Shown piece after piece: positions 4,230-61,080 of a DNA stretch of 64,000 nucleotides. Made by a program: the position numbers and the translations under genes. The first letter of the stretch is position 1. Each line of letters opens with the position of its first letter. The stretch is from a virus, in IMG/VR virus record IMGVR_UViG_3300046168_000026, positions 32,001 through 96,000 of that record; one strand, written 5' to 3'. Under the pieces are notes generated by a model. It worked only from the letters and a program-made list of their open reading frames with translations. It was not told the origin of the DNA and ran no database searches.

Positions 4230-4641
4230 TTAATGTTTGTATTGGTAGTTTATCATCGGTACATAACCATATATCATCTGTACCTATTTCCATTGCGTCT
4301 GTATGGTAGTGTTCTCGTCCTCTAACTTCTTGTGTAAATAAGTAAAACATTTTAGGGTTTAAATCTAATAGTTCATCTCGTACATCTTTGTATGGACCAA
4401 CAACTGATATGACTACATGAAAGTTTTTATGGTGAAGGAATCTGGCAATAGTAGTAACCTTTCTCATATTGTTCTTACGACCCTCTTCACTATAATCAGT
4501 ATTACTAAATACCTCTCTCATAAAATCACCATCGATATGTATTACAGGGTTACCAATGGTCTTATACTCGAAGTGTTCTTTTAAAAGTTTTGCTATTGTT
4601 GTCTTACCTGCGCCGGGCTGACCATAGAACCAATATATCAT
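4204..4641 (-). CDS. cysC: adenylyl-sulfate kinase (CysC)-like P-loop kinase
   Basis: WFYGQPGAGKTT, IDGDFMR, YSEEGRKNN, VVISVVGPY; start MIYWF via ATGA overlap. Confidence 0.75.
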   Translation of the reverse strand: MIYWFYGQPGAGKTTIAKLLKEHFEYKTIGNPVIHIDGDFMREVFSNTDYSEEGRKNNMRKVTTIARFLHHKNFHVVISVVGPYKDVRDELLDLNPKMFYLFTQEVRGREHYHTDAMEIGTDDIWLCTDDKLPIQTLNEVLTIHR

Positions 4642-5267
4642 TCGTACAACCAATTGTCAAGTTCTTCGACTTGAATTAAACCTAAGTCTTCTTCTCGATT
4701 TGCATCCATGATATTAAACTCATAAAATGGATTGTGTCTTTGTACGAGTGGTGTATCCATAAAGAAATTATTTTGAACAATACCAATACCCCAATCAGTA
4801 TCTACTACGCAAACCTTTAAATCTGTTCTACTTGTTCTTAACTCATAGATTGCTTTCCATACCGTACCATTCCATTCTCTATATTCACCATCCACCAAGT
4901 AGTCTTCTCTTGCCATAAAAGAATTTGGTGGATTACAATCGTGTAATAATATGTAACCATTTGGATTTAGATATCTAAGAGAATTGTGAATGTCTTTTTT
5001 TACCTGATAAGATTTGTGTAACCCATCTATGAATACAACATCGAATCTATCATTAGGTCTTCTATCATCCATGAATCTAAAAAACTCATCAGATGTCATC
5101 GTATGGTCAACAGGATTTTCTTCGAACTCAACGCCAGGGTCTACACCCTCTTTGTGTTCACATTGTACTTTGTCAAAACAATGAGTAGGGTCACATACAC
5201 CGATTTCAAGATACTTTTTAAAATCGTTCTCTTTTATTAGTTTGTTTATAATATCAAATCTATACAT
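4638..5267 (-). CDS. class I SAM-dependent methyltransferase (Methyltransf_24-like)
   Basis: YLEIGV, GVDP, FIDGLH, LLHDC; start reassigned to MYRFDII because the longer ORF runs through tRNAs. Confidence 0.8.
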   Translation of the reverse strand: MYRFDIINKLIKENDFKKYLEIGVCDPTHCFDKVQCEHKEGVDPGVEFEENPVDHTMTSDEFFRFMDDRRPNDRFDVVFIDGLHKSYQVKKDIHNSLRYLNPNGYILLHDCNPPNSFMAREDYLVDGEYREWNGTVWKAIYELRTSRTDLKVCVVDTDWGIGIVQNNFFMDTPLVQRHNPFYEFNIMDANREEDLGLIQVEELDNWLYE

Positions 5268-5281
5268 AATAAAATTTATTG

Positions 5282-5353
5282 TAGCCCCTAGGAGAATCGA
5301 ACTCCTCTTTCCAGGATGAAAACCTGGCGTCCTAACCGATAGACGAAGGGGCC
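5282..5353 (-). tRNA. tRNA-Glu(TTC)
   Basis: GGCCCCT/AGGGGCT acceptor, CCAGG-TTTTCAT-CCTGG anticodon arm, GTTCGATTC T-loop. Confidence 0.95.
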
Positions 5354-5363
5354 AGTATATTAG

Positions 5364-5435
5364 AGCGGAAAGGTGGAACTGCCCCACCATCTCCACATTG
5401 GTAATGTGGCGAGTTTCTTTTAACTCTTTTCCCGC
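5364..5435 (-). tRNA. non-canonical tRNA-Gly-like RNA, anticodon ACC
   Basis: GCGGGAA/TTTCCGC-T; D arm GAGT-TAAAAGAA-ACTC; CCACA-TTACCAA-TGTGG; T arm GGTGG-GGCAGTT-CCACC. Confidence 0.85.
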
Positions 5436-5439
5436 TTAG

Positions 5440-5511
5440 AGCGGAAGGTTGGAACTGCCCCAACTCCTTTGTACTGGATGTACAACGACTTTCTTTTAAG
5501 TCTTCTCCCGC
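5440..5511 (-). tRNA. non-canonical tRNA-Gly-like RNA, anticodon TCC (A at position 33)
   Basis: GCGGGAG/CTTCCGC-T; D arm GACT-TAAAAGAA-AGTC; TTGTA-CATCCAG-TACAA; T arm GTTGG-GGCAGTT-CCAAC. Confidence 0.85.
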
Positions 5512-5520
5512 GATTGTTTA

Positions 5521-5556
5521 CACAATATACAAAATAAAATTGACATGGCCAAATTT
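5521..5556 (-). promoter_or_regulatory. Bacteroidota-type promoter driving the tRNA-Gly-like pair
   Basis: TTTGG-N19-TATATTGT ending about 10 nt before the first RNA. Confidence 0.65.
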
Positions 5557-5560
5557 TTAG

Positions 5561-5634
5561 TGGAGAATATCGGAGTCGAACCGATGACCTCTTCGGTGCA
5601 AGCGAAGCGCTCTAGCCATCTGAGCTAATTCCCC
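5561..5634 (-). tRNA. tRNA-Ala(TGC)
   Basis: GGGGAAT/ATTCTCC acceptor with G3.U70, CTTCG-CTTGCAC-CGAAG, GTTCGACTC. Confidence 0.95.
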
Positions 5635-40194: not shown

Positions 40195-40432
40195 TTTTAA
40201 TTATCCTTAAATTCTCTATTTTTTTGAGAAATTGTTCAACTGAATAGTCTTTGTTTTTTTCGTCTTTGATTTTTACTTCTGTAAGTGTATCAGGGTATTT
40301 GTTAACCAGCCTTTCAAGAATTTCGAAACCTTGGTCTGTCCAAAAATTCTTAAAGGATGTTTCACCTAAGATGTTTGTAGAATAGTCTACATCATCCTCA
40401 TTATCGTCTGGTAACAAAATGTAGTATATCAT
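40187..40432 (-). CDS. hypothetical protein
   Basis: ATGA-coupled to GT gene. Confidence 0.6.
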   Translation of the reverse strand: MIYYILLPDDNEDDVDYSTNILGETSFKNFWTDQGFEILERLVNKYPDTLTEVKIKDEKNKDYSVEQFLKKIENLRIIKNG

Positions 40433-41613
40433 AGATTTATCAAACTTTTTTCGTAGTATTTTACTTTATTAACCTTTATATTAAATATGTCCAATTCGAA
40501 CTCACCGCATTGAATTCCATTAGAATCGAAGATTTCTGACCACTTTTGTATATAAGAATATGATGTATTTGATAGTCTATTTGCATCAAAACTTATTTCA
40601 ATATCAGCTTCTTTTTGTACATTTATTCTTGTACTTAAATCAAACTTAGTATTTGGTTGTTCCAATTTTATATAACTCTCGATAACATCTTCGTCTATAT
40701 CAATTGTTATTGAATCACACCAAGGTTCTAAAATGTTTAATATTTGAGAATTACCATTTTCTACATTAAATTTAATATCATATTTATGTGGAACTTCTGG
40801 CATCATCATTGCGTCATGTTTTACAAAATGACCCCATTTTCTAATAAAATTCCTTGTTGACCTCATATTTTGTTTCAACCATTCATCTGATTCTTTACCA
40901 ACTTCAGTTAATGTTGGGTTAAATCTCGAACCTCTACAAGTCATATGATATACACACCCATCCCAAGTTTGAATCAAATCATATCCATTCAAGAGAAATC
41001 TGTTGAATATGTCTGAATCTTCTTTGGATTGGGGTGCGTATAATGGGTCATGTCCACCAATTGAGGTGAAGTCTTCTTTGAATAAAAACCAAGGTGCAAA
41101 TATACCTTTAGTAGTTTTTCCATGTTTATATCTTTCATCACCTGTATTAAACCATTCTAAGAATCCATCTTCATCAAAGTCCTCAGGTTCAGTTTTCCAA
41201 TCCTTGAGTACTTTTTCAGGCCCATCTGGGTGAAGTGGTGGTTCAATTCGTGTCAATGAAACAACACTCAATGGTTTAATATGTTCTAATACAGATTCTA
41301 ATGCGCCAGGACAGAGATACATATCTGCGTGGTATATTCCTACAATCGGAGTATCTGCTATCTCTACTAACTCATCATATAGGATTGTATGTCCTACTCT
41401 TGTTGGTCCTTCGTTTCTAATTGCCTTGAAGTTTGGGTCGTGTACCATCATATCCTCACACCATTCCCAAGTCCCATCGGAACTGAAATCATCTGCTACA
41501 CATATTGTTGGTTCAGGACCTGCATTCTTTCTAATTGATTCGTAAGACCACTTGAGATACTTTAAATTATCTCTTGATGGTTGAATAAAACTAATATCTT
41601 TTTTACTTAACAT
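40429..41613 (-). CDS. glycosyltransferase family 2
   Basis: ISFIQP, VADDFSSDGT, HADM, GGHD, EDSD. Confidence 0.88.
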   Translation of the reverse strand: MLSKKDISFIQPSRDNLKYLKWSYESIRKNAGPEPTICVADDFSSDGTWEWCEDMMVHDPNFKAIRNEGPTRVGHTILYDELVEIADTPIVGIYHADMYLCPGALESVLEHIKPLSVVSLTRIEPPLHPDGPEKVLKDWKTEPEDFDEDGFLEWFNTGDERYKHGKTTKGIFAPWFLFKEDFTSIGGHDPLYAPQSKEDSDIFNRFLLNGYDLIQTWDGCVYHMTCRGSRFNPTLTEVGKESDEWLKQNMRSTRNFIRKWGHFVKHDAMMMPEVPHKYDIKFNVENGNSQILNILEPWCDSITIDIDEDVIESYIKLEQPNTKFDLSTRINVQKEADIEISFDANRLSNTSYSYIQKWSEIFDSNGIQCGEFELDIFNIKVNKVKYYEKSLINL

Positions 41614-42466
41614 AACTTTTTACCTTTTTAATTAAATCATCGTATGATTCTACATGATATATTTTTTGACCTGATAGTTTAGGGAAGAATGTTTCATATG
41701 CTTTATGTTTTACTTCATACCCCTTTACTCCATATATAATATTTTCACCACCGAAATATGCAGCCAATGCTGAATTACCACCTTGTGTTGATATTTGATG
41801 TTCGGTTAGACTTAAAACTGCCATCTGTGCTTCATTATATGATAGGTTGTATTCATTTGCTATATCTTGTACTGTTTGTACATTATATTTACTTATCAGT
41901 TCTTTATCACCAAAATCAAGTGGTGGGCTACCATCTTGTGTAATATCATCTACATCAGGTCTGTTATAGATTATATGAAACTTATCAGAACATAATTCAA
42001 ATATTGTTTTTAATGAGTCTAAATTAATATAATTTACAGGGTCAGAGTCCCACTCCGTTTGATACTTATTTGATATTACTAATAAAGGTTTATCAAAATT
42101 TAATCCCATCCAATTGTAAACTCCCTTGTAGTGACCATTCAAATCAGGCGGTGACCACCTGTCTTCCCAAACATTACAATCTCCTGCATCTTTTGCATCA
42201 GGCCAAAGTTCGTTTATCTTTTTACCAAAGAATCCTGCAACATGATTGTGTTGTCTATAATATTGTACATCGTTTATTTTCAGTTGCATATACTGAATTC
42301 TATTTGGATAGACTTCTGTCACATCTAAATTTGGATATAAGATATGACCACCCTTTGAAGTTCTTACTTTTACATCAACCCCTTGTTCTTTTGCATAATT
42401 TATTAAAGGTAGTGCTGCAAATAGTTCGTAACCAAACTCACCATGTATATCAAAGGTTGTTGTCAT
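41603..42466 (-). CDS. putative glycosyltransferase (GT-B-like) / glycan-modifying enzyme
   Basis: GEFGYEL start and QGGNS motif; cluster context. Confidence 0.55.
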   Translation of the reverse strand: MTTTFDIHGEFGYELFAALPLINYAKEQGVDVKVRTSKGGHILYPNLDVTEVYPNRIQYMQLKINDVQYYRQHNHVAGFFGKKINELWPDAKDAGDCNVWEDRWSPPDLNGHYKGVYNWMGLNFDKPLLVISNKYQTEWDSDPVNYINLDSLKTIFELCSDKFHIIYNRPDVDDITQDGSPPLDFGDKELISKYNVQTVQDIANEYNLSYNEAQMAVLSLTEHQISTQGGNSALAAYFGGENIIYGVKGYEVKHKAYETFFPKLSGQKIYHVESYDDLIKKVKSYVK

Positions 42467-43353
42467 TAAAAATCAAATTTCAATTGTCTACTACTAAACA
42501 AAGATTTAATATACTCTTCTAATCTATCTTGAGGTTCCCAGTCAAGAAACTCGATTGCCTCATCTGATTCTCTTAGAGTTTCTTTGTAATTACCTTGTTG
42601 GTTTGGAATGTACTTTCTTTTACACCCACTATATTTTTCGAACATATCTGCCACTTGGTTAATTGAATAGTTTGTACCTGTTCCAAGTTCCCAAGCGTCA
42701 AATGTTGGTTTAGTATCATGAGCATTTAACTTTAGTAATGCGTCTACTATATCGTGTACATGGGTAAAGTCTCTTTTTTGTTCACCATCACCGACAATTG
42801 TAATTGGTTGGTTATCTCTGATTTGTCTTCTCCAGATACCAATTACTGCTGCCCAATCACCATCAATAACTTCATGTGGTCCATATACATTATAGAACCT
42901 ACAAATCTCTATACTCATTCCGTAAGTCTTTTTGTATAACTTACATAATTCCTCACCAAGATATTTACAAGCCGCATATGGTGATTGATATGGGTCGTGG
43001 TGTTTAGAAGATGAACCTGCGTAAATAACTTTAATACCTTTTTTTCTTGCAAAGTCTAAAACCCTCTGAGTTCCTAAAGTGTTAACATCAAATGTTTCTG
43101 ATGGATTTTCAAATGAAGGTTGTATTCTTGACAATCCTGCCAAGTGATATATCAAGTCTATGTCCTCAGTAAATGAAAACCAACTACTAATCCACTTAAC
43201 ATCATCTTCATAATATGTTGCACCCTTTACATGATTACTTTTTGTACCTGTTGAGTAATCATCAAGTACAACTACTTCATGTCCATTTGTAACTAATCTT
43301 TTAACTAAATTTGTGCCAACAAAACCGGCACCTCCTGTAACTAATATTTTCAT
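42466..43353 (-). CDS. NAD-dependent nucleotide-sugar epimerase/dehydratase
   Basis: GGAGFVG, YAACK, RFYNVYGP, RDFTHV. Confidence 0.92.
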   Translation of the reverse strand: MKILVTGGAGFVGTNLVKRLVTNGHEVVVLDDYSTGTKSNHVKGATYYEDDVKWISSWFSFTEDIDLIYHLAGLSRIQPSFENPSETFDVNTLGTQRVLDFARKKGIKVIYAGSSSKHHDPYQSPYAACKYLGEELCKLYKKTYGMSIEICRFYNVYGPHEVIDGDWAAVIGIWRRQIRDNQPITIVGDGEQKRDFTHVHDIVDALLKLNAHDTKPTFDAWELGTGTNYSINQVADMFEKYSGCKRKYIPNQQGNYKETLRESDEAIEFLDWEPQDRLEEYIKSLFSSRQLKFDF

Positions 43354-44258
43354 AATAATGGTATTCTATTTGGATTATCTGTTCCTTTTATTTGTTTTAC
43401 AAAAGTTTGGTCATCGTGTTCAGGCAATCTGCCCCATTTTTTAATAAACTTTTGTGCATTTGTTGATTCTGATTCTTGTTGTCTTTTAGATTTAGAATTC
43501 AGTTTATCCTTTGCTTCATCTCTGAAATGAGAACCTCTTGCTGAAAAGTGGTATACAATTGACTTGGATGACATAATAAATTTATATCCTTCTAATTGCA
43601 TTCTAATAAACAAATCCATATCGTCAAATGAAGCGGGTGCGAATAGTGGGTCGTTACCACCAATCCAAACATAATCGTCTTTTTTACAGAAGAATCCGGC
43701 ACCACCACCTTTTCTTACACGCGTTTCATCCATTGCGGAAAGTTTTTGAGACCATTCATCAAACCAATCTTTATCGAAGTTGTGATGGAACTCCCCAAAC
43801 TCATCAGTTGATACAAATACAGTACCAGGTCGGTAATCAGGGTCATTAGGAAATATTTTAGGTTGAATTCTAAATGATGAAGCGATTATTCTTTTACCTT
43901 GAATAGTCCACTCTGCATTCTCTTCTACAATTTTTTGTAATTCTATATCTTGATTTGGAGCAATCCACATATCTGAGTGAATTATATTTACATACTCTGT
44001 TTGTGCTTTGTCAACACAAAAATCCATACCACCACCGATTCCTCTTGGTGTATCATTATGTTCTACAAACCCTTTTAGATTCTTGTCTGTTTGCATTTGA
44101 TTCATTAACCACTCATCTGTACCATCAGTACAATTCTCTGCGTGAATCACAATCGGTTGGTCTTTGTAATATGCATTCTTTCTTACAGACTCGTAAGCAA
44201 GTTTTACATAGTCAAGATTATTATTTGTTGAAATACAAGTTGTTATTGGACTTTCCAT
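43350..44258 (-). CDS. glycosyltransferase family 2
   Basis: CTDGT, HSDM, GGND..F, DDMD. Confidence 0.85.
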   Translation of the reverse strand: MESPITTCISTNNNLDYVKLAYESVRKNAYYKDQPIVIHAENCTDGTDEWLMNQMQTDKNLKGFVEHNDTPRGIGGGMDFCVDKAQTEYVNIIHSDMWIAPNQDIELQKIVEENAEWTIQGKRIIASSFRIQPKIFPNDPDYRPGTVFVSTDEFGEFHHNFDKDWFDEWSQKLSAMDETRVRKGGGAGFFCKKDDYVWIGGNDPLFAPASFDDMDLFIRMQLEGYKFIMSSKSIVYHFSARGSHFRDEAKDKLNSKSKRQQESESTNAQKFIKKWGRLPEHDDQTFVKQIKGTDNPNRIPLL

Positions 44259-45190
44259 ACATCTTCCCATTTATATGTTTTTGTTTGTTTCATAAAGTTG
44301 TAAGCATTATATTTAGAATACTCACTTGCTTTAGGATACCAATCATTTGACTTTCTTTGTTCGTTTATATCTTTACCATCCTCACTAACAACATATTTTC
44401 TTTTTCTTGGATGTTCTCTGTTATGTACTAATAAAATATTCTTTACAATATACAAAGGAATTTGGTTATTTCCAAATATTGTTAACATTTTATTCATAAA
44501 AGCAGTATCTTCGTGGGTAAAGAATACTGATTTTGGTATGTTTACTCCACTTTTTATTATCTCTGATGACATTACCAACCCACAACCATTAAATTTATAG
44601 TTGTATGTAGATTCTATATGTGGTGATTCAACATCTGAGTTTATCTCTTCCATTTTATCATAATCCATATAACACCTCGTCCCATACCATGCGTGTGGGT
44701 CTCTTGGTAAATCAGTTAGTTTTGGGTGTTCTAATGGTTTCCACGAATCATCCCACATTTTACAAGTTGAAAAGAACCCAACCCACTTTGGTGTTTGTTC
44801 TTTAACTGCCTCGTGTAATGATAATATCGTTTCCATCGCCTGTGATGGAACTAACATATCGGATTCACCCCAAAACAGGATGTCTGCAAGTTCACAATAC
44901 TTTTCGTTAAAATCTCTTCTGTAATCTGCGATTGTATATAAATCATCTCTGACTTCGTATTTGATTTGATAACCTTGTAGTTTATATTGATTACAAACTC
45001 TAACATACTTTTCCATAATGTATGTTAACATATCAACCTCATCAGAAACTTTTTCTAAGTCTTGATTTGTGACTAAACACATATCAATCAAAACTTTTTC
45101 TTTTGTTACTATTGATTTAGTTAAGGAATCTAAATACTCCTCAAACATATCAACTTCGTACCATTGTACTAAACAACCTGCCGCTACCAT
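44243..45190 (-). CDS. putative GT-A glycosyltransferase
   Basis: GESDML, HEDT motifs; cluster context. Confidence 0.6.
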   Translation of the reverse strand: MVAAGCLVQWYEVDMFEEYLDSLTKSIVTKEKVLIDMCLVTNQDLEKVSDEVDMLTYIMEKYVRVCNQYKLQGYQIKYEVRDDLYTIADYRRDFNEKYCELADILFWGESDMLVPSQAMETILSLHEAVKEQTPKWVGFFSTCKMWDDSWKPLEHPKLTDLPRDPHAWYGTRCYMDYDKMEEINSDVESPHIESTYNYKFNGCGLVMSSEIIKSGVNIPKSVFFTHEDTAFMNKMLTIFGNNQIPLYIVKNILLVHNREHPRKRKYVVSEDGKDINEQRKSNDWYPKASEYSKYNAYNFMKQTKTYKWEDVWKVQ

Positions 45191-46008
45191 AATGTATCTC
45201 TTGGAATCCCTTCCCAACCAGGATTAGTTTCTGAATCGATTACCCACGAAACATTTTGTTTCTGTAACCATTGGTAGATACCTTTAGTTGCGTTTGCTAC
45301 TGACTTGATTTCTCTTGGCCCCATTGATGTTTTTGCATAAACAATCTTTTCGTGTTCATTACCATAGAAGTGTTCTTGGAATACTCTTTGTGTATCGTCT
45401 TCTGTTCCATTTTCAAATGATGATAAATCACCAATGTCCCATCCAACCGTAACAATTTTTCTACACCCCAAGTACAATGCCAATGGAATTGCCATCTCAT
45501 ACATAATACCAGGCCCCCAAGGTTGTTGAAATCCTATTTCGGGGTGGTCTAACTTCATAGTATCCCAATCTTCTTTTTCTGATAGAGAGTGAATCATTTT
45601 GTTAGGTCCAACTCCACCACCTGTATTTGGGTTGTTTCTAAATATAGGAATGAATAGGTCTGATTCTAAATTATTATCAAAAATCATTTGAGGATGAAAT
45701 TGTTCAAATATTGCCCATGTTATGATTGATTTATTATCTGACCAATCGTATGGTGCGAAGTTACAAAAGTTTAGTAAGTGAAAGTCAGTAACATCTTTTA
45801 CTAAATTATATGATTGTTTGATTGGCATACATAATTTATCTGCCATAAACTCATTAAGGAATTCTTTATCATACTTTTTAAGTGAAGGACCACCTGCGAT
45901 TATATATGCAGTCTCATCTTTGTACTGATTTTTTAATACCTTTAACCTATCTTCAGGTTCTTCTAATTTTAGAAGTTCTTCTCGTAACTTACTTGTCTGT
46001 AATTTCAT
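45184..46008 (-). CDS. Maf/DUF115-like (MptE-like) CMP-ulosonate transferase candidate
   Basis: LKNQYKDETAYIIAGGPSL, ALYLGCRKI..VGWD, HFY. Confidence 0.7.
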   Translation of the reverse strand: MKLQTSKLREELLKLEEPEDRLKVLKNQYKDETAYIIAGGPSLKKYDKEFLNEFMADKLCMPIKQSYNLVKDVTDFHLLNFCNFAPYDWSDNKSIITWAIFEQFHPQMIFDNNLESDLFIPIFRNNPNTGGGVGPNKMIHSLSEKEDWDTMKLDHPEIGFQQPWGPGIMYEMAIPLALYLGCRKIVTVGWDIGDLSSFENGTEDDTQRVFQEHFYGNEHEKIVYAKTSMGPREIKSVANATKGIYQWLQKQNVSWVIDSETNPGWEGIPRDTLW

Positions 46009-46414
46009 CGAATTGTTTAAGTGTTTGTTCCCACGATTCAAACCTAATACCTCTGTCATCTATGTAACAGACTGCTCTTGGTTTTTCACAAGTTATTTCT
46101 TTTATATAAGTATCAATCTTATATTTGGCTAACCACTCCCATATTAGTTCTTCACCTGTCTTACCATTTACAAGTGGTCTATCAGGTTTTACTTTAGCGG
46201 TAAATAAAACTATATCATAACCCTTTTCATCGAACCATTTGATTGCGTCTATTGAACCCTCAATCGGTGGGTCATATACAGTTCCATCATGAAACCCTTT
46301 TGAATTACCATGGACAACACCATCAAAGTCTATTGCAACTTGATGATTGTTTTCATGCCATTGTAGTGCATCGTAGTCTTCTATTTCTTTTTTAAGGGTG
46401 TCTTCTGTTTTCAT
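45989..46414 (-). CDS. HAD-superfamily phosphatase
   Basis: IDFDGV, FTA, KP....IDDR. Confidence 0.8.
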   Translation of the reverse strand: MKTEDTLKKEIEDYDALQWHENNHQVAIDFDGVVHGNSKGFHDGTVYDPPIEGSIDAIKWFDEKGYDIVLFTAKVKPDRPLVNGKTGEELIWEWLAKYKIDTYIKEITCEKPRAVCYIDDRGIRFESWEQTLKQFDEITDK

Positions 46415-47129
46415 AATTACTGAATACTGGTGTTGATTTATTTCTACTTGAATATGCCCCATAAATAAACTTTCTAAACTCTTTAGTCTCGTGTTGTTTA
46501 CTTACAGAGTGTAATGAGTTTGGTGACGATAAAAAGAATACTGCTCTATTTGCTTTTGCTGGTATAACTGAGTGAATAAGTACTGGCTCTTTTTTGTATA
46601 AGTTAGGTGCACCACCCCTTGGTTGTTGATAAGTTTCTACTCCATCACTTGAATGTATTACAAAGTCACCACCACTCCAATCCTTATCATTAAAGAATAT
46701 TAAGAAGTTCAAAAATCTCTTCTGAGAATCTGCGTGTACTTCTCTAATATAACCATCACCTGCCTCTGACCAATCTATATGAGTAAACATTTTTTGATTT
46801 GATATTAACTCATCTGTTAAAGTACATCCCCAATGTTCCATAGAAGCTTGGAATTTCTGTTTAAAGTAGTTTAACATTTCATCTGAATCTATGTAATTGT
46901 GAAACTCATTCCATGTTGTTGTAGATTCTAACCACTTCCAAGTATCTGGTTGACTTGCACTATTTGCGATTTGTCTACGACCACCCATAACAGTATTTGC
47001 CTTTTCTTCTATGAGTTTACCTGGCCATTCCTTAACCAAATTATTAAAGATGTCTTGTTCAAAACAATCATCAATGACTATATAGTCATATGGATAATTG
47101 TATACTCTTGCATTATTAAAGTTAATCAT
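46392..47129 (-). CDS. 2OG-Fe(II) oxygenase
   Basis: HAD, NRAVFF, LHSV, RKF. Confidence 0.8.
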   Translation of the reverse strand: MINFNNARVYNYPYDYIVIDDCFEQDIFNNLVKEWPGKLIEEKANTVMGGRRQIANSASQPDTWKWLESTTTWNEFHNYIDSDEMLNYFKQKFQASMEHWGCTLTDELISNQKMFTHIDWSEAGDGYIREVHADSQKRFLNFLIFFNDKDWSGGDFVIHSSDGVETYQQPRGGAPNLYKKEPVLIHSVIPAKANRAVFFLSSPNSLHSVSKQHETKEFRKFIYGAYSSRNKSTPVFSNYENRRHP

Positions 47130-47514
47130 ATTTCTCGTATATTTTCTCTTCGAAAAATTCTGAGTTTAACAAGTGATTAATTTCTTTCTTTTCTGCTGCC
47201 CTTCTATCATTAGTATAATATACTGCTCTTGCCAACTCAATAAACTCTTCATCAAATTTATTGTCTCGTTCTTTTAGTCTAACTGAGTCTTCGATGACCC
47301 ACATTTCACCATTAGTTTTTAATAACCTTTGGTAAACTTCTTTAAGTTCATCACCACCTGCTTCCCAAAATGGTTTCAACTTATCTTGTAAATAATTTAG
47401 TTCATTTGTAATATTAGTTTTTTGAACTGAATCATTAACATTTTTTAATTTTATTTCAAGGATTGATAACTTATCAAATGCGTCACCAATCGGTGTTTTA
47501 ATCTCTATTGCCAT
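47122..47514 (-). CDS. DUF6165-like protein
   Basis: GDAFDKLSILEIK...W.IED..R...ARAVY.TND.R...K..IN. Confidence 0.75.
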   Translation of the reverse strand: MAIEIKTPIGDAFDKLSILEIKLKNVNDSVQKTNITNELNYLQDKLKPFWEAGGDELKEVYQRLLKTNGEMWVIEDSVRLKERDNKFDEEFIELARAVYYTNDRRAAEKKEINHLLNSEFFEEKIYEKYD

Positions 47515-48460
47515 AGTTCTTTATTTTTTTAGCACCTTCTTCTATTAACATTTTTTTAATACCATCTTCTAAATATACAAAATTTTTATGAGATACACAA
47601 CTTTTTAGTTTAGAAAGTGATGGTCGTCTCCATTTAGTATCGTTACCCCATGCTTCCTTGTATTTCTTTTTATATTTTTTACCCATGATTCTGTGAATAG
47701 TTTTAGCTAAATCTTTGATTCTAACTTCTTCATCAAATCCAATGTTTATGATTTCGTTATCAACTTTTTCAATAATCTGAGATGCCATTTCTGCGTGGTC
47801 TGTTACATAACAAAAAGACCTTGTTTGATTACCATCACCATGTAGATAAAACTCTTCGCCTGATTGTACTCTTTCTATAAATTCAGGTATTACTTGACCA
47901 TACCCATTTGTTGCCATTCTCGGGCCGTAAGTATTAAATGGTCTAAGAATCACAAAACTCTTTCTTTTCTCATTTGCCCACAACCTTGTCAAGAACTCAC
48001 CCATACCTTTTGAGGATGCGTATGAATCTCTATCTGCCAATGGATGTAGAATCATTGCGTCATCTTCTTTTGTTGGTATCGATGGAGTTGGTCCATAAAT
48101 TTCAGATGATGATGCGTATACTACTTTTGTTACTGAAGGTGTACATGCGTTCAATACATTCTGAGTCATTAAGATATTATTGTTACATACTTTAAATGGT
48201 ATATCATAAAAATACCTTGTACCATTTATTGCAGCGTAGTGAACAACTATTTCAAATTGTTGTTCTTCCATAAACTTTTTAATTGGTTCTTGGTAAACCA
48301 AATCCATCTCATAAAATTTAAAGTTTTCATGACTTGGTAAGTTATCTATTTTGCCTCTAAAAAAGTTGTCTACTCCAACAACCTCGTGACCTTTATCTAA
48401 TAAACTATCACAAAGATGTGAACCTAAAAATCCTGCTGCACCTGTAACTAATATCTTCAT
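47498..48460 (-). CDS. UDP-glucuronate decarboxylase-like NAD-dependent epimerase
   Basis: GAAGFLGSHL, ASSSEIYG, YASSK, RPFNTYGPRM, QTRSFCYV. Confidence 0.88.
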   Translation of the reverse strand: MKILVTGAAGFLGSHLCDSLLDKGHEVVGVDNFFRGKIDNLPSHENFKFYEMDLVYQEPIKKFMEEQQFEIVVHYAAINGTRYFYDIPFKVCNNNILMTQNVLNACTPSVTKVVYASSSEIYGPTPSIPTKEDDAMILHPLADRDSYASSKGMGEFLTRLWANEKRKSFVILRPFNTYGPRMATNGYGQVIPEFIERVQSGEEFYLHGDGNQTRSFCYVTDHAEMASQIIEKVDNEIINIGFDEEVRIKDLAKTIHRIMGKKYKKKYKEAWGNDTKWRRPSLSKLKSCVSHKNFVYLEDGIKKMLIEEGAKKIKNYGNRD

Positions 48461-49263
48461 TATATTTCGTATCTCATTCCTTTAGGAACTTTTTTAACAA
48501 ATTTGTCGTTTTCTTCGTCAATGAATCTGAATATGTCTACATCAATATCGTATTTTTTACATAGAACTTTCATTGCCTTTGTGTCTTTAGGTAAACACAT
48601 ACCACCATAACCACCAAACTCTTTATTTACATTTAGATAGTGACCTTCACCAACTCCATGGAATAAAAATGCGTCTTTGATTGCATCATAGTTTGCACCA
48701 AAATGTTGTGCTACTTTATGGAATGAGTTTGCAAATGTGATTCTCATCGCTTTGTAAGTGTTTGAGAAGTACTTCATAAGTTCGGCATCAATGATTTTGA
48801 CTTTTACTTTGTGAAATGGTAGTGAACCATGACTCTTTACAATCAAATCATAGTTTTCATCACTATCAGTACCAACAACTAAAATGTTATTGTTGTATAC
48901 AAAGTCTTCGTATGCACATCTTTCTCTTAAGAATTCAGGCACAAAACACATATTAAGATTTGGATATTCTTTTCTTAATCTATTTGTTGTACCAGGTTCA
49001 ATTGTACTTTTCAATGCTACAAGACCTTTATACTCCAAGTCATTTAATTGTTTTATTACACTATTAACTGCCGTTAAATCACATTCATCATTTGCACCTG
49101 TTGGAGTACCAACGGTAATAAAGTTGATTTCTGTATCTAATGTATCTTCTATTGAAGTCTCAGGTATTTTGATATCGTAACCAACCACCTCGTGTCCGAT
49201 GTATTCAAATCCTTTTGATATTGCAGAACCTACTGCTCCGATTCCGATTACTCCTAATTTCAT
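48460..49263 (-). CDS. UDP-glucose/GDP-mannose 6-dehydrogenase (lacks C-terminal domain)
   Basis: GIGAVG, VGTP, KST..PG, PEFLRE, AELMK, GYGGMCLPKD. Confidence 0.88.
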   Translation of the reverse strand: MKLGVIGIGAVGSAISKGFEYIGHEVVGYDIKIPETSIEDTLDTEINFITVGTPTGANDECDLTAVNSVIKQLNDLEYKGLVALKSTIEPGTTNRLRKEYPNLNMCFVPEFLRERCAYEDFVYNNNILVVGTDSDENYDLIVKSHGSLPFHKVKVKIIDAELMKYFSNTYKAMRITFANSFHKVAQHFGANYDAIKDAFLFHGVGEGHYLNVNKEFGGYGGMCLPKDTKAMKVLCKKYDIDVDIFRFIDEENDKFVKKVPKGMRYEI

Positions 49264-49922
49264 TCCCATATGTAATTCCATTTTTGTTTATGCCACTTAT
49301 TTTCTTTAATGTATTTTATAATATCATGATGTACCATCTTTGTATCAAAATAGTGTGGCTTACAATATAAATGACCAAAGAGTGGAACTCCACTCGTTAC
49401 TGAATCTGCCATATTCATAAAACTTCCTTCATAAACATGGATTTCTTTTGCGTTCTGTAATACTTTTCTGTAATCCAATATATGTCCTGCTCTACCATCA
49501 AGGTTTATCACAGGTAAATTTGGATTCATAAAATGTTTTCTGTTAATACCAATCATTGGACGATTCATATTATCAAGTGGTCTTTCATGTACGATTATGT
49601 AATCTTTACCATGCGTTTGAACCAACTCATTATATAATCTATCCTCTTCATTTACATCATAATCCCAAGTTAAATCTCGCCAACTACTATGTTCAACACC
49701 ATCTTGAAATTTTAATCCTATATGTGGTGCGTGATATTCATGAGGACAAGTGCCTGTTGATAGGTTTGGTGTCTCATTGTATAGTTTTTCAAATAACCAA
49801 TTTAGTCTTGGTACTTGTATGTATACTCTATCGTATTCTTTACAATACTTTTCTTTAATTACTGATGAGAACATTAAGCCATCACCAACTCCACCTGCGT
49901 GTCCTATTGTTATTGCTTCCAT
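49260..49922 (-). CDS. putative glycosyltransferase (GT9/GT-B-like)
   Basis: HAGGVGD start motif; cluster context. Confidence 0.5.
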   Translation of the reverse strand: MEAITIGHAGGVGDGLMFSSVIKEKYCKEYDRVYIQVPRLNWLFEKLYNETPNLSTGTCPHEYHAPHIGLKFQDGVEHSSWRDLTWDYDVNEEDRLYNELVQTHGKDYIIVHERPLDNMNRPMIGINRKHFMNPNLPVINLDGRAGHILDYRKVLQNAKEIHVYEGSFMNMADSVTSGVPLFGHLYCKPHYFDTKMVHHDIIKYIKENKWHKQKWNYIWE

Positions 49923-51646
49923 TAACTTAACATTTTTTCAACGATTTCGATATCTGATGGATAGTCAACTGCGTGTGATACATTGTCCACCATTACCATT
50001 TTTACTTTATGTCCCATCTCTATAAATCTATCAATCTCAATGTCTTCCTCAAATTCGAGTGGTGTCTTTTTACCATAATCGGCAAAGTCTTTTAGATGTT
50101 CTCTATTGAATCCGTAGATACAAACTTGTTTCATTGGATTACTGGTCTTACCCTGTTTTGTTCCTGGGAGTGGACTCCTTGAACACCAAATTAACTCATC
50201 ATTTAGATTTGTAATTACTTTTGGTATCTTTGGGTCTTCAATCTTTTCGTGAGGATTCAAATATGCCATACAATTTATAATATGGTCAGGGTTATCAATC
50301 TTAGCTTGAATAACTTTATCAATATCGTTTGCTGATAACATAGGTTCGTCACCTTGGACATTGATGATAAAGTCTGCGTCTATTTCCATTGCCGCTTCTG
50401 CTACTCTATCTGTACCCGTTGGACATTCGTCTGAAGTTAAGATTACTTTTAAACCATTGTTTTTTGCAACATCAACAATTTCTTCGTTTTCTGTTGCGAT
50501 GTAAACATTATCTTTACCCACCATCGAGTTTTGACATAGTTCAGCAACCCAAAGAATCATTTCTTTTCCATTAATCATCGCAAGAGGTTTTCCAGGGAAT
50601 CTTGATGATTTGTATCTTGCGGGGATAACTATCGCAACCTTTGGGTCTAAGACCCCATCAAGTTTTTTATTATCAAATGACTTCGATTCAGGTATGTCAA
50701 GTAATACATCTTCTATCCTATTAGGATGTAAGAACGATTGTTGTAAGTTCTGAGGATACAATGGGTGAATGTGTTTCAATCCACTAACCATATAGTTGTG
50801 TGTAAAACCCCATTTGTATTTTTCCATCAAAGGATTCATCCAATCAGAAATAACTTTTTGTAAGGGTTTACAATTGTATTGTGTCTTATCACCCCAAAGA
50901 AATTTTGTTTGGTCTTTTGCGTATTGTAGGTAAGTTACAAGTTGTTCTGTTTTAACATTTCCGACACCTCTACCCATTCCAAGTAAAGTACCATCTAACC
51001 AAAGTGCCCCTTCGGATTCTGCGGCAAGACAATTGGCGAATGCAAGTCCAAGGTTATCGTGTGTATGAATCCCAATCTTCGAATCACCTTCGAATAGTTC
51101 TACAATCTCTTTTGTTCTATCAGGAGTCAATGCTCCATATGAATCAGCAAAGTATAATGATAGTGGTTTTAATTCACCCATATCATTTACGAAAGTATTT
51201 ATTTCACTATCATCCAATAAAGATATACCCATCAGATTTACTATCAATTCGTAATCCTTTGATTGGATATATTTACCGATTTCGATTGCGAGGTCTAACT
51301 CCGAATACTTTATCGCGAGACGACAAATATCGAATGGTGAATTTTCCCCATCATGGATAACATCATCAATCAATGAGAAATCTACTTCATTACCTTTTAT
51401 GAAATCCTTTGCGTCAATCATAAACGCAAGTTTGAGGTTTACTGGCTTTCTATTGTCCAATACATCCCAAATGAACCTATCGTTACACTTACGATATTTA
51501 CCACCCTTAACAGGCGATTTGTAACCCATCTCCATTACTCCGACTCCCGAAAGGTCAAGGGCTTGTACTAAGTCTCTGACCATCTGAGTGTCAAAGTTCC
51601 AATTGGTGTAGTACCCACCATCTCTTAATGTACAATCTAATATCAT
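49922..51646 (-). CDS. fusion: DRE-TIM (HMGL-like) pyruvate aldolase plus CMP-Kdo synthetase (KdsB)
   Basis: LDCTLRDGG, ADSYG, HTHDN, GMGRGVGN; then IPARYKSSRFPGKPL, GTDR, NVQGDEP, AVD. Confidence 0.88.
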   Translation of the reverse strand: MILDCTLRDGGYYTNWNFDTQMVRDLVQALDLSGVGVMEMGYKSPVKGGKYRKCNDRFIWDVLDNRKPVNLKLAFMIDAKDFIKGNEVDFSLIDDVIHDGENSPFDICRLAIKYSELDLAIEIGKYIQSKDYELIVNLMGISLLDDSEINTFVNDMGELKPLSLYFADSYGALTPDRTKEIVELFEGDSKIGIHTHDNLGLAFANCLAAESEGALWLDGTLLGMGRGVGNVKTEQLVTYLQYAKDQTKFLWGDKTQYNCKPLQKVISDWMNPLMEKYKWGFTHNYMVSGLKHIHPLYPQNLQQSFLHPNRIEDVLLDIPESKSFDNKKLDGVLDPKVAIVIPARYKSSRFPGKPLAMINGKEMILWVAELCQNSMVGKDNVYIATENEEIVDVAKNNGLKVILTSDECPTGTDRVAEAAMEIDADFIINVQGDEPMLSANDIDKVIQAKIDNPDHIINCMAYLNPHEKIEDPKIPKVITNLNDELIWCSRSPLPGTKQGKTSNPMKQVCIYGFNREHLKDFADYGKKTPLEFEEDIEIDRFIEMGHKVKMVMVDNVSHAVDYPSDIEIVEKMLS

Positions 51647-51699
51647 AGGAAATTTGTTAAAATTTTCTTTCGACACACGAATCGTTCCCAAAATGTGGG

Positions 51700-52323
51700 T
51701 TACACGAGGGTGTCATAATAGTCGTTTTGTTTTACTTGTTTTTCTATATCTTTGTGATGGAACAATGATAGTTCCTCAACCCAAGGTAAATTAGAAATCG
51801 TGTCATATCCATCGAGTTTCTCGTGTACCTTATTTATCCAACGAATGGAGTCTGATTTTTTATAAACTCTCCATTGTGGGTCTGGCCAATTTACTCGACC
51901 CTTATCATCAACCTTCCACCCCCACTTCTGAATGTACTCATCGGTTAACCCATCTACCAAATTTACTCTTGGTACAAGAATCACATCAACACCATTCATT
52001 TCAAGGATTGCTGGAAGGTTTTCAATCAATTCATTATTAGGGATTTCATCTGCGTCAATCTGAAAGATGTAATCACCATTACATAAATCTGTTAATTTGT
52101 TTTTCCAATTTGCGAAGTGTCCATCGAACTCACCACTATGCCATGAGTAAGTCGGATTTACTGATTTTGCTCTGAGGTATTCTTCTACTTTTGTATCACC
52201 ATTCTTAGAATCGTATAGAACTACGATTTCATCTTCGTCTCTGATATTGTCTAATAGGTAAGGTATTAGTTTTTGAATTTCTACCAACTCATTACAAACT
52301 GTAATTGCGTAACTTATTTTCAT
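51700..52323 (-). CDS. glycosyltransferase family 2
   Basis: ISYAITVCNE, IDADE, W..KVHE. Confidence 0.88.
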   Translation of the reverse strand: MKISYAITVCNELVEIQKLIPYLLDNIRDEDEIVVLYDSKNGDTKVEEYLRAKSVNPTYSWHSGEFDGHFANWKNKLTDLCNGDYIFQIDADEIPNNELIENLPAILEMNGVDVILVPRVNLVDGLTDEYIQKWGWKVDDKGRVNWPDPQWRVYKKSDSIRWINKVHEKLDGYDTISNLPWVEELSLFHHKDIEKQVKQNDYYDTLV

Positions 52324-52332
52324 ACTTTATTT

Positions 52333-52848
52333 TTATAATCCTACGGGTGGAGTATCTTGTGTGGTCTCCAAATCCGTATCGTCCTTTCGAACTTGTTCTT
52401 GTTGTCTTCGTTCTGACCTTGATGCTACTTTATCAAATACACCATAGTCATAGTTATAAATTGTTATCTGACCTACATTCTTTTCAACCAAAGTTCTATA
52501 ACCATTTTGAAGGTCTTTGTTCTTTAGTTTAGAAGTGTAGAATTGTTTAGAGTTAACTTCTACTCTCAATTTACTCAAATCTAACTTTTTAATTTGAGGA
52601 GTAGTACTTGTTACCTCATTCAAATCCTCTGCAAGTTTAGTAAACTTGTCGGGTGCACAATCTTTTAAATCTAAACAATGAAAGTAATTCTTGAATTTAG
52701 GTTGTAAGATAAAGACAAACATATCTCTCTGAGAGTTGTCTCGTTTCTTATACCTAATCTTTGCAACCATACCTCTTTCTAATTTAGTCTTAGAAACTCT
52801 TGTAGGGTCTGTTAATTTACTTCTATGTCTACTTGTAAAATCTGGCAT
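52333..52848 (-). CDS. hypothetical protein
   Basis: ORF coupled to upstream stop. Confidence 0.65.
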   Translation of the reverse strand: MPDFTSRHRSKLTDPTRVSKTKLERGMVAKIRYKKRDNSQRDMFVFILQPKFKNYFHCLDLKDCAPDKFTKLAEDLNEVTSTTPQIKKLDLSKLRVEVNSKQFYTSKLKNKDLQNGYRTLVEKNVGQITIYNYDYGVFDKVASRSERRQQEQVRKDDTDLETTQDTPPVGL

Positions 52849-54128
52849 TACTTTTTCTTCAATTTAGGTAGTTTCAATCCAACTTGAGTAGGACCTTCAC
52901 CAACTTTATATTGTGTTAACAACTCACCTAACTTCTCTGTCATCTTATCTTGAGTAAAGTTAGTTTTTACATAATGTCTGTTTTTACGAGACATTACCAC
53001 TGCTTTTTTGTAATTGTTATAAACTGTTTTTAGAACACCACCTGCTTGTTGATGGTCAATCTTGAACCATTTTGCTTGTTCAAGAATCCATTTGTTTGCA
53101 GCTGATTTATGGACATTCTCTAATTTACCACCCACTAAAAAGTTATATTCTTTATTTAAGAAATCTACATGACCACTCCAAGCTGATGCTATAATTGGTT
53201 TACCACTAACACATGCCTCAAGTAATGGTCTACCGAATCCTTCACCATGAGTAAATGATACATGAGATTTTACTTTTGGATGGTTGTATACTGAATTCAT
53301 TTCTTCATCAGTCAAATCACCATCTAAAATATAAATATTAGGAAAGTTAGTTCCACCAATTCTATTTTTACATCTTTCAATTGTTTTTCTTAGTCGATGT
53401 ATATTTGATATTGATGGTTGTCCATTATTAGTTTTTAGAACCAACGCAGGTTTAGTTTTGTTTTTAAAAGATGTTCCCTTAAATGTATTCAAAAATACTT
53501 TTACTAATGAATATATGTTTTTTCTATCTTGACCATCTGCGCCTGGTAACCAATGACCCACAAATAAGAAACAAAAGTTTTCTGGTATTTTGTCAAATAC
53601 TTTTTTAACAGTATTGTTTATAGGTGCTTTATTGTCAAAAACCTTTGTGTCAAATCCCTCGAATAAAACTTCAACAGGTTTTTCTAATTTCAACTCACCC
53701 ATTTTTTGTTTTGTCTGGTCATTGAGTTTATCATAAACTGCCGATAAAGTTCTTGCTGAATGTTCTGACGAAACCATAGTTAAGTCCATTCTATTACACC
53801 CATCGATAAATTCTGCAGGCGCATCTGATGTTTCGATAACTGCTGATACACCAATATTAAAATGACCTACTGGTTGAAACTCTGATGGAATTGTCATTTG
53901 AATCCAAATATCTGGCTTCGATTCCATTTTAGGACTGATTCTTGAAGTCAAATCCGAATCATCAGGTGTCAATGCGTTGATAGGAGTTTGTCCCCATCGT
54001 TGAGACAATATTCTAATGTCCCACTCATCACCCTTTAACTGAATTAATGACCTTACGAAATCTCTACTTCTTGCACCATAACCACTTCTTGTAGCTATTG
54101 GACAACTAATTACACATACTTTTTTCAT
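52848..54128 (-). CDS. glycosyltransferase family 4 (GT-B)
   Basis: SGYG, RKN, EGFGRPLLEA. Confidence 0.9.
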   Translation of the reverse strand: MKKVCVISCPIATRSGYGARSRDFVRSLIQLKGDEWDIRILSQRWGQTPINALTPDDSDLTSRISPKMESKPDIWIQMTIPSEFQPVGHFNIGVSAVIETSDAPAEFIDGCNRMDLTMVSSEHSARTLSAVYDKLNDQTKQKMGELKLEKPVEVLFEGFDTKVFDNKAPINNTVKKVFDKIPENFCFLFVGHWLPGADGQDRKNIYSLVKVFLNTFKGTSFKNKTKPALVLKTNNGQPSISNIHRLRKTIERCKNRIGGTNFPNIYILDGDLTDEEMNSVYNHPKVKSHVSFTHGEGFGRPLLEACVSGKPIIASAWSGHVDFLNKEYNFLVGGKLENVHKSAANKWILEQAKWFKIDHQQAGGVLKTVYNNYKKAVVMSRKNRHYVKTNFTQDKMTEKLGELLTQYKVGEGPTQVGLKLPKLKKK

Positions 54129-58972: not shown

Positions 58973-59893
58973 TTATTTTCCTAATGTCATTAAAATAGTT
59001 AATACCATAGCCATCACATTGATTTCTTTATCAACTACCATAGAGTCTTTGTACTGACCCTCGGCTATATTTAAAATAGTGTGTCCGACTTTACCATTTG
59101 CATATGAATCTACTTCATCATAAAGTGCTCTATACAATGGTGTAAAGTCTTTCACTTTTGAATCTGCAATAATTTGTCTGATTGTGTTGAACTTTGTTTT
59201 CATTTCACCACTATCTTGTAAAACTTTTATTACATCTTCAGTATAGTTCGCCTGAATTGTAGAGGTTGTATCTATTTGTAATTCACCTTTGACAACTTGT
59301 CTTTGTGCTGAATTTAGAACTCTACGAATGTCAGGATAACCACTATTGACCAAAATTGCCAACTCTTCTTTTTCAAACTTAACTGATTCCTCATTTAATA
59401 TATCAAACAATCTTTTTGCCACTTCTTTTTTAGAAGGTGGTGTTATTGCGAATGTTTGACAACGAGATTGAATCGGGTCAATAATTTTCTCTACATAGTT
59501 ACAAGTTAAAATGAACCTTGTAGATTTACTAAAAGTTTCCATAAGATTACGAAGTGCTGCTTGTGCATTTGGTGTCAAATAGTCAGCTTCGTCTAATATG
59601 ATAACTTTCCACTTTCTGAAACCCATTGATGATGCAAATCCACGAATCTTGTCACGAACTGCGTCAACTGAGTTTTCATCAGAAGCGTTAATATACATCA
59701 AATCACAATCAATCTGATTTGTGATTATCTTTGCGAGGGTAGTCTTACCAGTTCCTGCAACTCCATAGAGTAACAAGTGAGGTACATCCTCATTTTCAAT
59801 GTATATTTTTACTTTGTCTAATATATGTTGATTACCAACATATCCATCTAATGTATCGGGTCTGTATTTTTCAACCCATAGTGAATTGCTCAT
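58973..59893 (-). CDS. clamp loader ATPase subunit (RFC / T4 gp44-like)
   Basis: WVEKYRP, GVAGTGKT, NASD, DEAD, SRC. Confidence 0.95.
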   Translation of the reverse strand: MSNSLWVEKYRPDTLDGYVGNQHILDKVKIYIENEDVPHLLLYGVAGTGKTTLAKIITNQIDCDLMYINASDENSVDAVRDKIRGFASSMGFRKWKVIILDEADYLTPNAQAALRNLMETFSKSTRFILTCNYVEKIIDPIQSRCQTFAITPPSKKEVAKRLFDILNEESVKFEKEELAILVNSGYPDIRRVLNSAQRQVVKGELQIDTTSTIQANYTEDVIKVLQDSGEMKTKFNTIRQIIADSKVKDFTPLYRALYDEVDSYANGKVGHTILNIAEGQYKDSMVVDKEINVMAMVLTILMTLGK

Positions 59894-61080
59894 CTACCTA
59901 CTTCTTTTAAATATGTTTCTTTTGCGTTTTCCCAAGTCATCCCAATAATATCCATGTAATACAATGTATCTGGTTTCAACCTATTCTCATCATGTAACTT
60001 AGTGTATCTTCTAATAGCTTTCTTCTTCCACCATCTGATTGTGTAATCATCACCTTCTTCGAACTTCTTTTTCATCTTCAACTGACTTTCATCAATCTCG
60101 TTTCTTAGAAACTCATTACCATTATCATACATCATTGCGAAGTATACACCTCGTTTAAATCCATGTTGATATTGTGTACTTTTGATTCCCAACTCTTTGA
60201 AAATCATAGACAATATTCTTTGTTTGATACCAGATACAGGTCCTTGGATACCTTCCTTTTGGGTTGTAACTCTTTTGTATTCATCAGCATTATGTTCTTT
60301 CATCCATTGATGCCAGATATCGTAAAATTGATTATCAGGTTTAGTAGAAACTTTACCTGTCGATTCACCTAATGTTTTGAAATGTGGTATTCCATTATAT
60401 TGTGAATGGATTCCATAAAGAGAAGTTGTACCAACTGCGATTAGAGTTTGTCCATACTTTTCTTTCCACAAATCTCTGAATGTAGGTGAAGTGGTCAATG
60501 CCGAAACAAGTTTACCACCTAAGAAATTATATCCCAAAGGTTGTGTTGCGATGATAGATGTACCAATTGTAGTATGATTTAACTTACCATCTTTAAACTT
60601 GTTATCTTTATCCCACCCAATGTATTTATCACGAACACCTAAAGATGTTACATCAGAACCAAGTGAAATTACACCAAGTACTTTACCACTCTTTCGGTCT
60701 TTAGCAAATGCTTTTATATTACGACCTGGATTAGCGGTAAATTCCATTGATGAAATACACTTACGAATATCAGTCCACTTTGCCGTTCCTGCAGAATCTA
60801 CGATTAGTTCAACATAAGGTTCTAACTCTTCAATTTCTTTAATAGTTTGTTCCTTATTTTGAATGTCAGTTGGAGTCCAAATCATATCATAAGACCTTGC
60901 AAGACTTGGTTTTCTTGACATAGACTTAGGTAGGTCTGAGTTCCACTCCTGCCACTTTTTATAAAGAGTTTGTTCCTCAACTGGCATACCTGATAGGTAT
61001 TCCATATTGTCGATGAATCGTTTTCTCTCTACATCATAGTCAAAGACTGGTGCCGCTGGTTCTGTGTCCCAAAATTGCAT
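59890..61080 (-). CDS. DUF4338 / DruA-like protein (probable Mom-related GNAT fold)
   Basis: PGR, GKVLGVISLGS, RDKYIGW, QPLGYNFLGGKL, TTSLYG.HSQYN, LG.S.G. Confidence 0.7.
   Translation of the reverse strand: MQFWDTEPAAPVFDYDVERKRFIDNMEYLSGMPVEEQTLYKKWQEWNSDLPKSMSRKPSLARSYDMIWTPTDIQNKEQTIKEIEELEPYVELIVDSAGTAKWTDIRKCISSMEFTANPGRNIKAFAKDRKSGKVLGVISLGSDVTSLGVRDKYIGWDKDNKFKDGKLNHTTIGTSIIATQPLGYNFLGGKLVSALTTSPTFRDLWKEKYGQTLIAVGTTSLYGIHSQYNGIPHFKTLGESTGKVSTKPDNQFYDIWHQWMKEHNADEYKRVTTQKEGIQGPVSGIKQRILSMIFKELGIKSTQYQHGFKRGVYFAMMYDNGNEFLRNEIDESQLKMKKKFEEGDDYTIRWWKKKAIRRYTKLHDENRLKPDTLYYMDIIGMTWENAKETYLKEVGR

Follow-up and report, generated by a model that had tools for sequence, protein, structure and literature searches.

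The stretch analysed in this study (the window) comprises 64,000 nt, positions 32,001-96,000 of the IMG/VR virus record IMGVR_UViG_3300046168_000026, a T4-like phage record of 176 kb and 34% GC that is 97% complete. Two tRNA-Gly-like RNAs of 72 nt each lie in tandem on its minus strand, separated by a 4-nt spacer. Copy A (5440..5511; 96 bits with model R1) has the anticodon UCC, A33, A8, A18, the T loop GGCAGUU, U51-A63 and U73. Copy B (5364..5435; 91 bits with R1) has the anticodon ACC, U33 and U73, and its D and T loops are those of copy A. The pair is flanked on the same strand by canonical tRNA genes, tRNA-Ala(UGC) (5560..5634) on the upstream side and tRNA-Glu(UUC) (5281..5353) 10 nt downstream of copy B. 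CCA is encoded in neither copy, both 3' ends being U73-CUA, and the neighbouring tRNA-Ala (CUA) and tRNA-Glu (CAA) likewise lack it. No terminator was found between copy B and tRNA-Glu, and the three RNAs are probably on one transcript. An ORF (4638-5396) overlaps copy B, which we ascribe to an upstream GTG mistaken for the start; its protein probably starts after tRNA-Glu. Outside the window, at 138818-138892 and 139178-139252 of the genome, ARAGORN made two weak calls of identical length with an 8-nt loop, 360 nt apart, at relaxed score, which are probably a repeat inside a structural gene. In two distant large relatives, the tRNA cluster with the odd tRNA-Gly also contains a tmRNA gene (L067:90-475 and L068:1073-1478).

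At the far end of the window, a DNA polymerase B gene (polB, PF00136; 61828..64000, minus strand) runs past the border to 64344. Two mom genes lie upstream of it, outside the window: momB (genome 96373-97161, window-equivalent 64373-65161), directly upstream of polB, and momA (genome 97148-97900, window-equivalent 65148-65900). Their products match PF25680 with E values of 2.9e-47 (MomB) and 1.8e-45 (MomA). When aligned to the Mu Mom structure 8BV8, both keep H58, Y59, R111, S124, D149, Y159 and W181, seven of the eight key residues. At the eighth, R151, an essential residue of Mu Mom, MomA has K and MomB has E; this position is variable among other homologues as well. Four large relatives (L040, G015, G054 and G057) have a third, more distant mom gene.

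A gene at 59890..61080 (minus strand), between likely sliding clamp and clamp loader genes, encodes a DruA/DUF4338-like protein (PF14236, E 1.6e-18). The best PDB match of its predicted structure (pLDDT 77) is Mu Mom 8BV8 (Foldseek E 3e-4; Z 9.6, rmsd 4.0, 174 aligned), with other GNATs reaching 8.7, within about 1 Z. This model makes the protein a candidate for a third glycine acceptor enzyme with a Mom-like GNAT fold. The preliminary description had proposed a phage aminoacyl-transferase as partner of the RNAs. Mom-family GNATs can now be named in this role, and the FemXAB type can be dropped from it: FemAB (PF02388), the MprF/DUF2156 LPG-synthase domain (PF09924) and the BioF2-like Acetyltransf_6 domain (PF13480) had no match in this phage and four relatives, with positive controls for each search. 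Between the RNAs and these genes, a long gene run at 40429-55537 resembles, by eye, glycosyltransferases and nucleotide-sugar enzymes, which suggests glycosylation of the virion or the DNA. In the 176-kb genome (G000), GATC does not occur, ACGT occurs once, and CTAG, CGCG and CCGG are strongly depleted too. These depletions point to heavy restriction pressure on the phage.

The RNAs had been described as having their own promoter. A promoter-like motif, TTG-N20-TATATTG (5523..5552, minus strand), is indeed present 11 nt upstream of copy A and downstream of tRNA-Ala, and is presumably active. The motif has 14 matches on the minus (coding) strand, nine of them intergenic against a background of about 10%, and one of them before polB. 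The HTH-momA-momB operon is preceded by a one-base variant with equal spacing, and many relatives have a similar motif upstream of the RNA element. A sigma-70 scan gave 8 sites versus 6.3 expected. The motif resembles the -7 box TAnnTTTG of the Bacteroidota, known from Flavobacterium and Bacteroides (PMC7641319), which suggests a Bacteroidota host and co-expression of the RNAs with the replication genes.

Each copy folds into a perfect cloverleaf with 21 of 21 stem pairs. The same structure has the lowest predicted energy (z -3.8 and -4.4); none of 200 shuffles folded equally well. The copies differ at 20 positions, of which 14 make up the seven compensatory pair changes reported earlier (7-66, 12-23, 27-43, 28-42, 29-41, 30-40 and 50-64). 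Their odd loops had been called identical; this is true of the D and T loops, but the anticodon loop has four differences and the variable loop two. One relative (L004) carries a mixed copy, with the anticodon stem of A and the D and T stems of B. The tandem arrangement is not essential, since close relatives have a single copy.

Both copies retain the features by which a tRNA-Gly would be recognized for charging, namely the cloverleaf and the GlyRS identity set (G1-C72, C2-G71, G3-C70, U73, C35 and C36), together with G10-Y25:G45. On the other hand, several invariants of canonical tRNA are missing, with A8, A18, G54, G55 and G58 in both copies and A33 in copy A. The loss of U8, the loss of TTC from the T loop and the presence of U51-A63 in place of G51-C63 were all borne out, as were the two anticodons. 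The D-loop GG, which had been described as lost, is only half gone: G18 is replaced by A, while G19 and its partner C56 are retained. The elbow of the molecule looks rebuilt rather than lost, with putative A8-U14, A18-G55 and G54-G58 pairings beside the kept G19-C56.

The wider family was collected with two exact sequence patterns, the first of them without the T loop, which gave 26 viral loci, and with a looser pattern, which gave at least 114 stretches; three of the matches (L095, L128 and L129) were rejected as chance. In the 26-sequence alignment (A1), pairing is 100%, and 11 pairs show double changes. The 56-member alignment (A3) is 98.2% paired, with double changes in 14 pairs and a covariation of 0.74 versus at most 0.14 in slid controls. 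Under patterns that fixed part of the identity set and left the acceptor 5' strand and the D arm free, the family keeps G1-C72, C2-G71, G3-C70, G10, G45, C35, C36 and U73, and these positions are those of the published glycine identity (PMC9976931). Some members retain U8, which links the family to ordinary tRNA-Gly. A blastn search with the RNA pair against 50,697 cultured phage records returned chance matches only. A 68-nt tRNA-Gly-like RNA with a shrunken D loop (L386:1501-1568) was seen in a genome without a Mom match.

As the preliminary description had expected, standard tools score the copies poorly. ARAGORN calls neither at its default setting and B alone at a relaxed score, and an Rfam search of both, including RF00005, gave no match at E<=1. 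Such misses would be natural for decayed pseudogenes or chance structure. However, the perfect pairing, the seven compensatory changes and the conservation across genomes of 30-69% GC all argue for selected structures, as had been claimed at the outset, and the covariation refutes decay or chance, to which we give practically no weight.

It is very improbable that the RNAs are unusual but working decoders, with copy B (ACC) reading GGU. The idea draws on codon usage, since GGU is the main glycine codon of the phage (2378 of 3758 Gly codons), on the retention of U33 in copy B and on the absence of a canonical tRNA-Gly from this genome. Yet position 33 varies among the 82 members compared (A 37, U 32, G 8, C 5), so that U33 is absent in 50; A34 is often accompanied by A33, and some members have 8-nt anticodon loops. 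G51-C63 occurs in 0 of the 82, and in many relatives a canonical tRNA-Gly stands beside the odd copies. Position 34 drifts as well (U 40, A 12, C 30 of 82), and for this reason the ACC anticodon of copy B, once singled out as a noteworthy rarity, is not special.

A family search with a check of gene co-occurrence had been suggested earlier; here, a search by RNA pattern tied the element to mom in both viral and cellular loci. The RNA pattern contains no Mom information, so the DNA search was blind to Mom. Among 88 new viral loci, 51 have a mom domain at most 100 nt away on the same strand, as confirmed by whole-record Pfam searches; the rest are mostly low-GC large-phage loci, with three chance matches and contig ends. 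In GTDB, many of whose hits are Planctomycetota MAGs, a mom domain directly precedes the element in 20 of 23 real cloverleaves versus 0 of 97 chance matches. We also sampled evenly 150 genomes of the class to which a Phycisphaerae MAG belongs: mom was present in six of the seven element-bearing genomes and in 3 of the 143 others. Searching from the Mom side, we found a tRNA-Gly-like RNA of another subtype adjoining mom in 15 of 22 Dehalococcoidia loci. These counts are inflated by relatedness, and those within a branch of the midpoint-rooted Mom tree are not independent; the linked Mom genes are spread over about five deep branches of it, which indicates that the linkage is not one inherited block.

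In the phage studied here, about 59 kb separates the mom genes from the tRNA cluster in which the free-standing RNAs lie, and at this distance their link to Mom rests on co-occurrence in a few, related genomes. All seven element-bearing records of the large-phage clade that are at least 70% complete have two or three mom genes. Among five capsid-selected genomes at least 90% complete, three have both element and mom, and two, which are circular and complete, have neither; one of the latter still has 24 ordinary tRNAs. An element-bearing record without mom that is listed as 96% complete (G055) was rejected as an exception, because it lacks polB too and shares an identical element with a 271-kb genome. 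A scheme of one RNA per Mom paralogue was likewise rejected, since the counts across relatives are 2/2, 1/3, 2/3, 1/1 and 1/2.

The link is one-sided: mom occurs without the element. Model R2 found the element in none of eight cultured mom phages, including P12002L, whose Mom is sister to MomA and MomB. A private tRNA is evidently not required, as these phages do without the element and Mu Mom works with all host isoacceptors. Conversely, three real elements have no nearby mom and no clear excuse. One is at L135:489-560 in a high-GC phage contig; another is at L193:5603-5672, near the end of the fetched stretch of a delta-proteobacterial MAG; the third, in a Dehalococcoidia MAG (L205:1769-1840), is at the end of a ParB-like ORF that is followed by terminase-like genes.

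The linkage also bears on the proposal that the RNAs are decoys for tRNA-Gly-targeting toxins. In its broader form, they would be decoys or a resistant reserve against host defences acting on tRNA-Gly, such as TacT-type acetylases and anticodon nucleases, independently of Mom. The TacT determinants U73 and G71 are kept (PMC9976931), and nuclease resistance could follow from the changed anticodon loop and the lack of modification motifs. This proposal leaves unexplained the overlap with mom in unrelated phages and the absence of the element from mom-less relatives. We consider it highly unlikely as the main function; resistance to tRNA-targeting defences could be a side benefit of a donor role.

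Small phages and prophage-like contigs have the element embedded within the 3' end of the mom ORF itself (L069, L070, L073, L167 and about 60 similar loci). All embedded elements are in the same reading frame, and the lengths of their spacers differ in steps of 3. The ORF reads through the element in high-GC members and stops after 4 codons in low-GC ones. RNA processing would cut the mom mRNA ahead of its stop codon. A 197-kb phage of 28% GC has a divergent mom gene with an RNA of the same subtype immediately upstream (L097:10263-10335). An 18-kb viral contig with an element at 4589-4662 (L063) has about six Mom-like ORFs and another odd tRNA-Gly, which lacks U8 and has a 9-nt anticodon loop and a canonical T loop.

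Tight control of Mom is needed in phage Mu, and it is conceivable that the RNAs regulate Mom, either as uncharged mimics that restrain a toxic enzyme or through processing of the embedded RNA, which cuts the mom mRNA. Such regulation would account for the linkage equally well, and the constant reading frame of the embedded elements is in its favor. However, there is no variation at C35/C36 and U73, positions important for GlyRS, and CCA is encoded in 18 of 30 embedded copies. Cutting of the mom mRNA cannot apply in the phage studied here, because its RNAs are free-standing. On balance, regulation of Mom is unlikely.

The DruA/DUF4338-like GNAT (59890-61080), rather than MomA or MomB, might be the main recipient of the glycine in this phage, acting on DNA or another target. 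Besides the match of its model to Mu Mom, its gene tracks the element as well as mom does in the large-phage clade: every element-bearing large relative that was tested has it, and the two without the element do not. In small phages, by contrast, the same RNA subtype overlaps mom, and eight of the nine small records of this kind have no DruA match; model R2 found no element beside the DruA-like gene in four loci. We also know of no activity for the DruA/DUF4338 family. A main role for this protein is accordingly quite unlikely in our estimation.

Taken together, these results indicate that copies A and B are probably private, ribosome-excluded glycine donors for a Mom-type DNA hypermodification that protects the phage DNA. 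The earlier idea of selected, non-proteinogenic glycine carriers serving an aminoacyl-transferase is upheld by the covariation, the invariant GlyRS set and the free position 33; that they can be charged and are excluded from EF-Tu is what these sequences would predict. The copies would be transcribed from a promoter of the class found before the mom operon and polB, and matured by host RNase P, 3' trimming and the CCA-adding enzyme. Host GlyRS would then glycylate them via the intact identity set, and the weak 51-63 pair, the free position 33 and the rebuilt elbow may allow them largely to avoid EF-Tu and the ribosome, for which staphylococci offer a precedent. MomA and MomB, and perhaps also the DruA-like protein, would transfer the glycine to the N6 of adenine in new phage DNA. 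The predicted product is a base like the 6-NcmdA known from the chemistry of Mu Mom, which would block restriction. The gain would be an unsequestered donor pool for modifying an AT-rich genome of 176 kb without draining translation.

With less than even confidence, we further propose that the RNAs and the enzymes form an orthogonal pair, in which a phage tRNA-Gly with a rebuilt elbow is ignored by EF-Tu and the ribosome and preferred over host tRNA-Gly by the Mom-fold enzymes. It might be a virus-encoded tRNA dedicated to DNA chemistry and recruited several times across Mom lineages. To our knowledge, tRNAs dedicated to non-ribosomal tasks have been demonstrated in only a handful of systems, chiefly staphylococcal cell-wall synthesis. 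If private glycine donation is correct, phage tRNA genes that escape standard annotation would have a new use, and this would explain how Mom gains access to glycine otherwise sequestered by EF-Tu. DruA/DUF4338 proteins likewise emerge as possible tRNA-dependent modifiers.

Our literature search found no paper joining a phage-encoded tRNA-Gly to Mom, the supplements of PMC13219725 aside. The closest known enzyme is Mu Mom (PF25680, 8BV8; Silva et al. 2026, PMC13219725). According to the article itself, it is a GNAT that moves glycine from Gly-tRNA(Gly) to the N6 of adenine in dsDNA; all E. coli isoacceptors serve as donors, and mischarged tRNA-Ala is rejected. The phage studied here resembles Mu in its Mom-family GNATs with most of the key residues. 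In Mu, however, host isoacceptors are used, and the article reports no phage-encoded donor tRNA; here we find two Mom paralogues in which R151 is not kept, a DruA-like protein of Mom fold and two dedicated-looking tRNAs.

The closest functional parallel is the set of staphylococcal tRNA-Gly species NP1-3 used by FmhB, FemA and FemB (PMC7826273). In that system, EF-Tu sequesters ordinary Gly-tRNA and inhibits the transferase, and it does so far less with the non-proteinogenic tRNAs (PMC7826273). Like NP1-3, the phage RNAs keep GlyRS identity, have lost the T-loop TTC and carry a weak A/U pair at 51-63. By analogy, they may be a donor pool like the staphylococcal one, withheld from EF-Tu and reserved for a GNAT-fold transferase. 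The differences are that NP1-3 are limited to staphylococci and serve peptidoglycan, whereas the phage lineage, which is viral or mobile, lacks U8 and frequently also U33, has the T loop GGCAG with G49 kept, and is without a FemAB gene.

The physical tie to mom has its own precedent in the ssrA islands of Dehalococcoides, where a 76-bp tRNA-Gly-like "pseudo-tRNA" (anticodon DCC) lies inside a mom homologue (McMurdie et al. 2011, PMC3146451). It shares with the phage RNAs the tRNA-Gly-like fold, a degenerate N34 with fixed CC and the association with mom, and model R2 scores loci of this type at 23-55 bits. Because it lies at the 5' end of mom (first 150 bp) and has other D and T loops, it represents a different structural subtype; members of the window subtype elsewhere overlap the 3' end of mom, and the window copies themselves belong to a large T4-like phage, where they stand free as a tandem pair behind a promoter motif of their own. 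No function was proposed for the pseudo-tRNA in 2011 (PMC3146451), and glycine donation to Mom, if true, would provide one.
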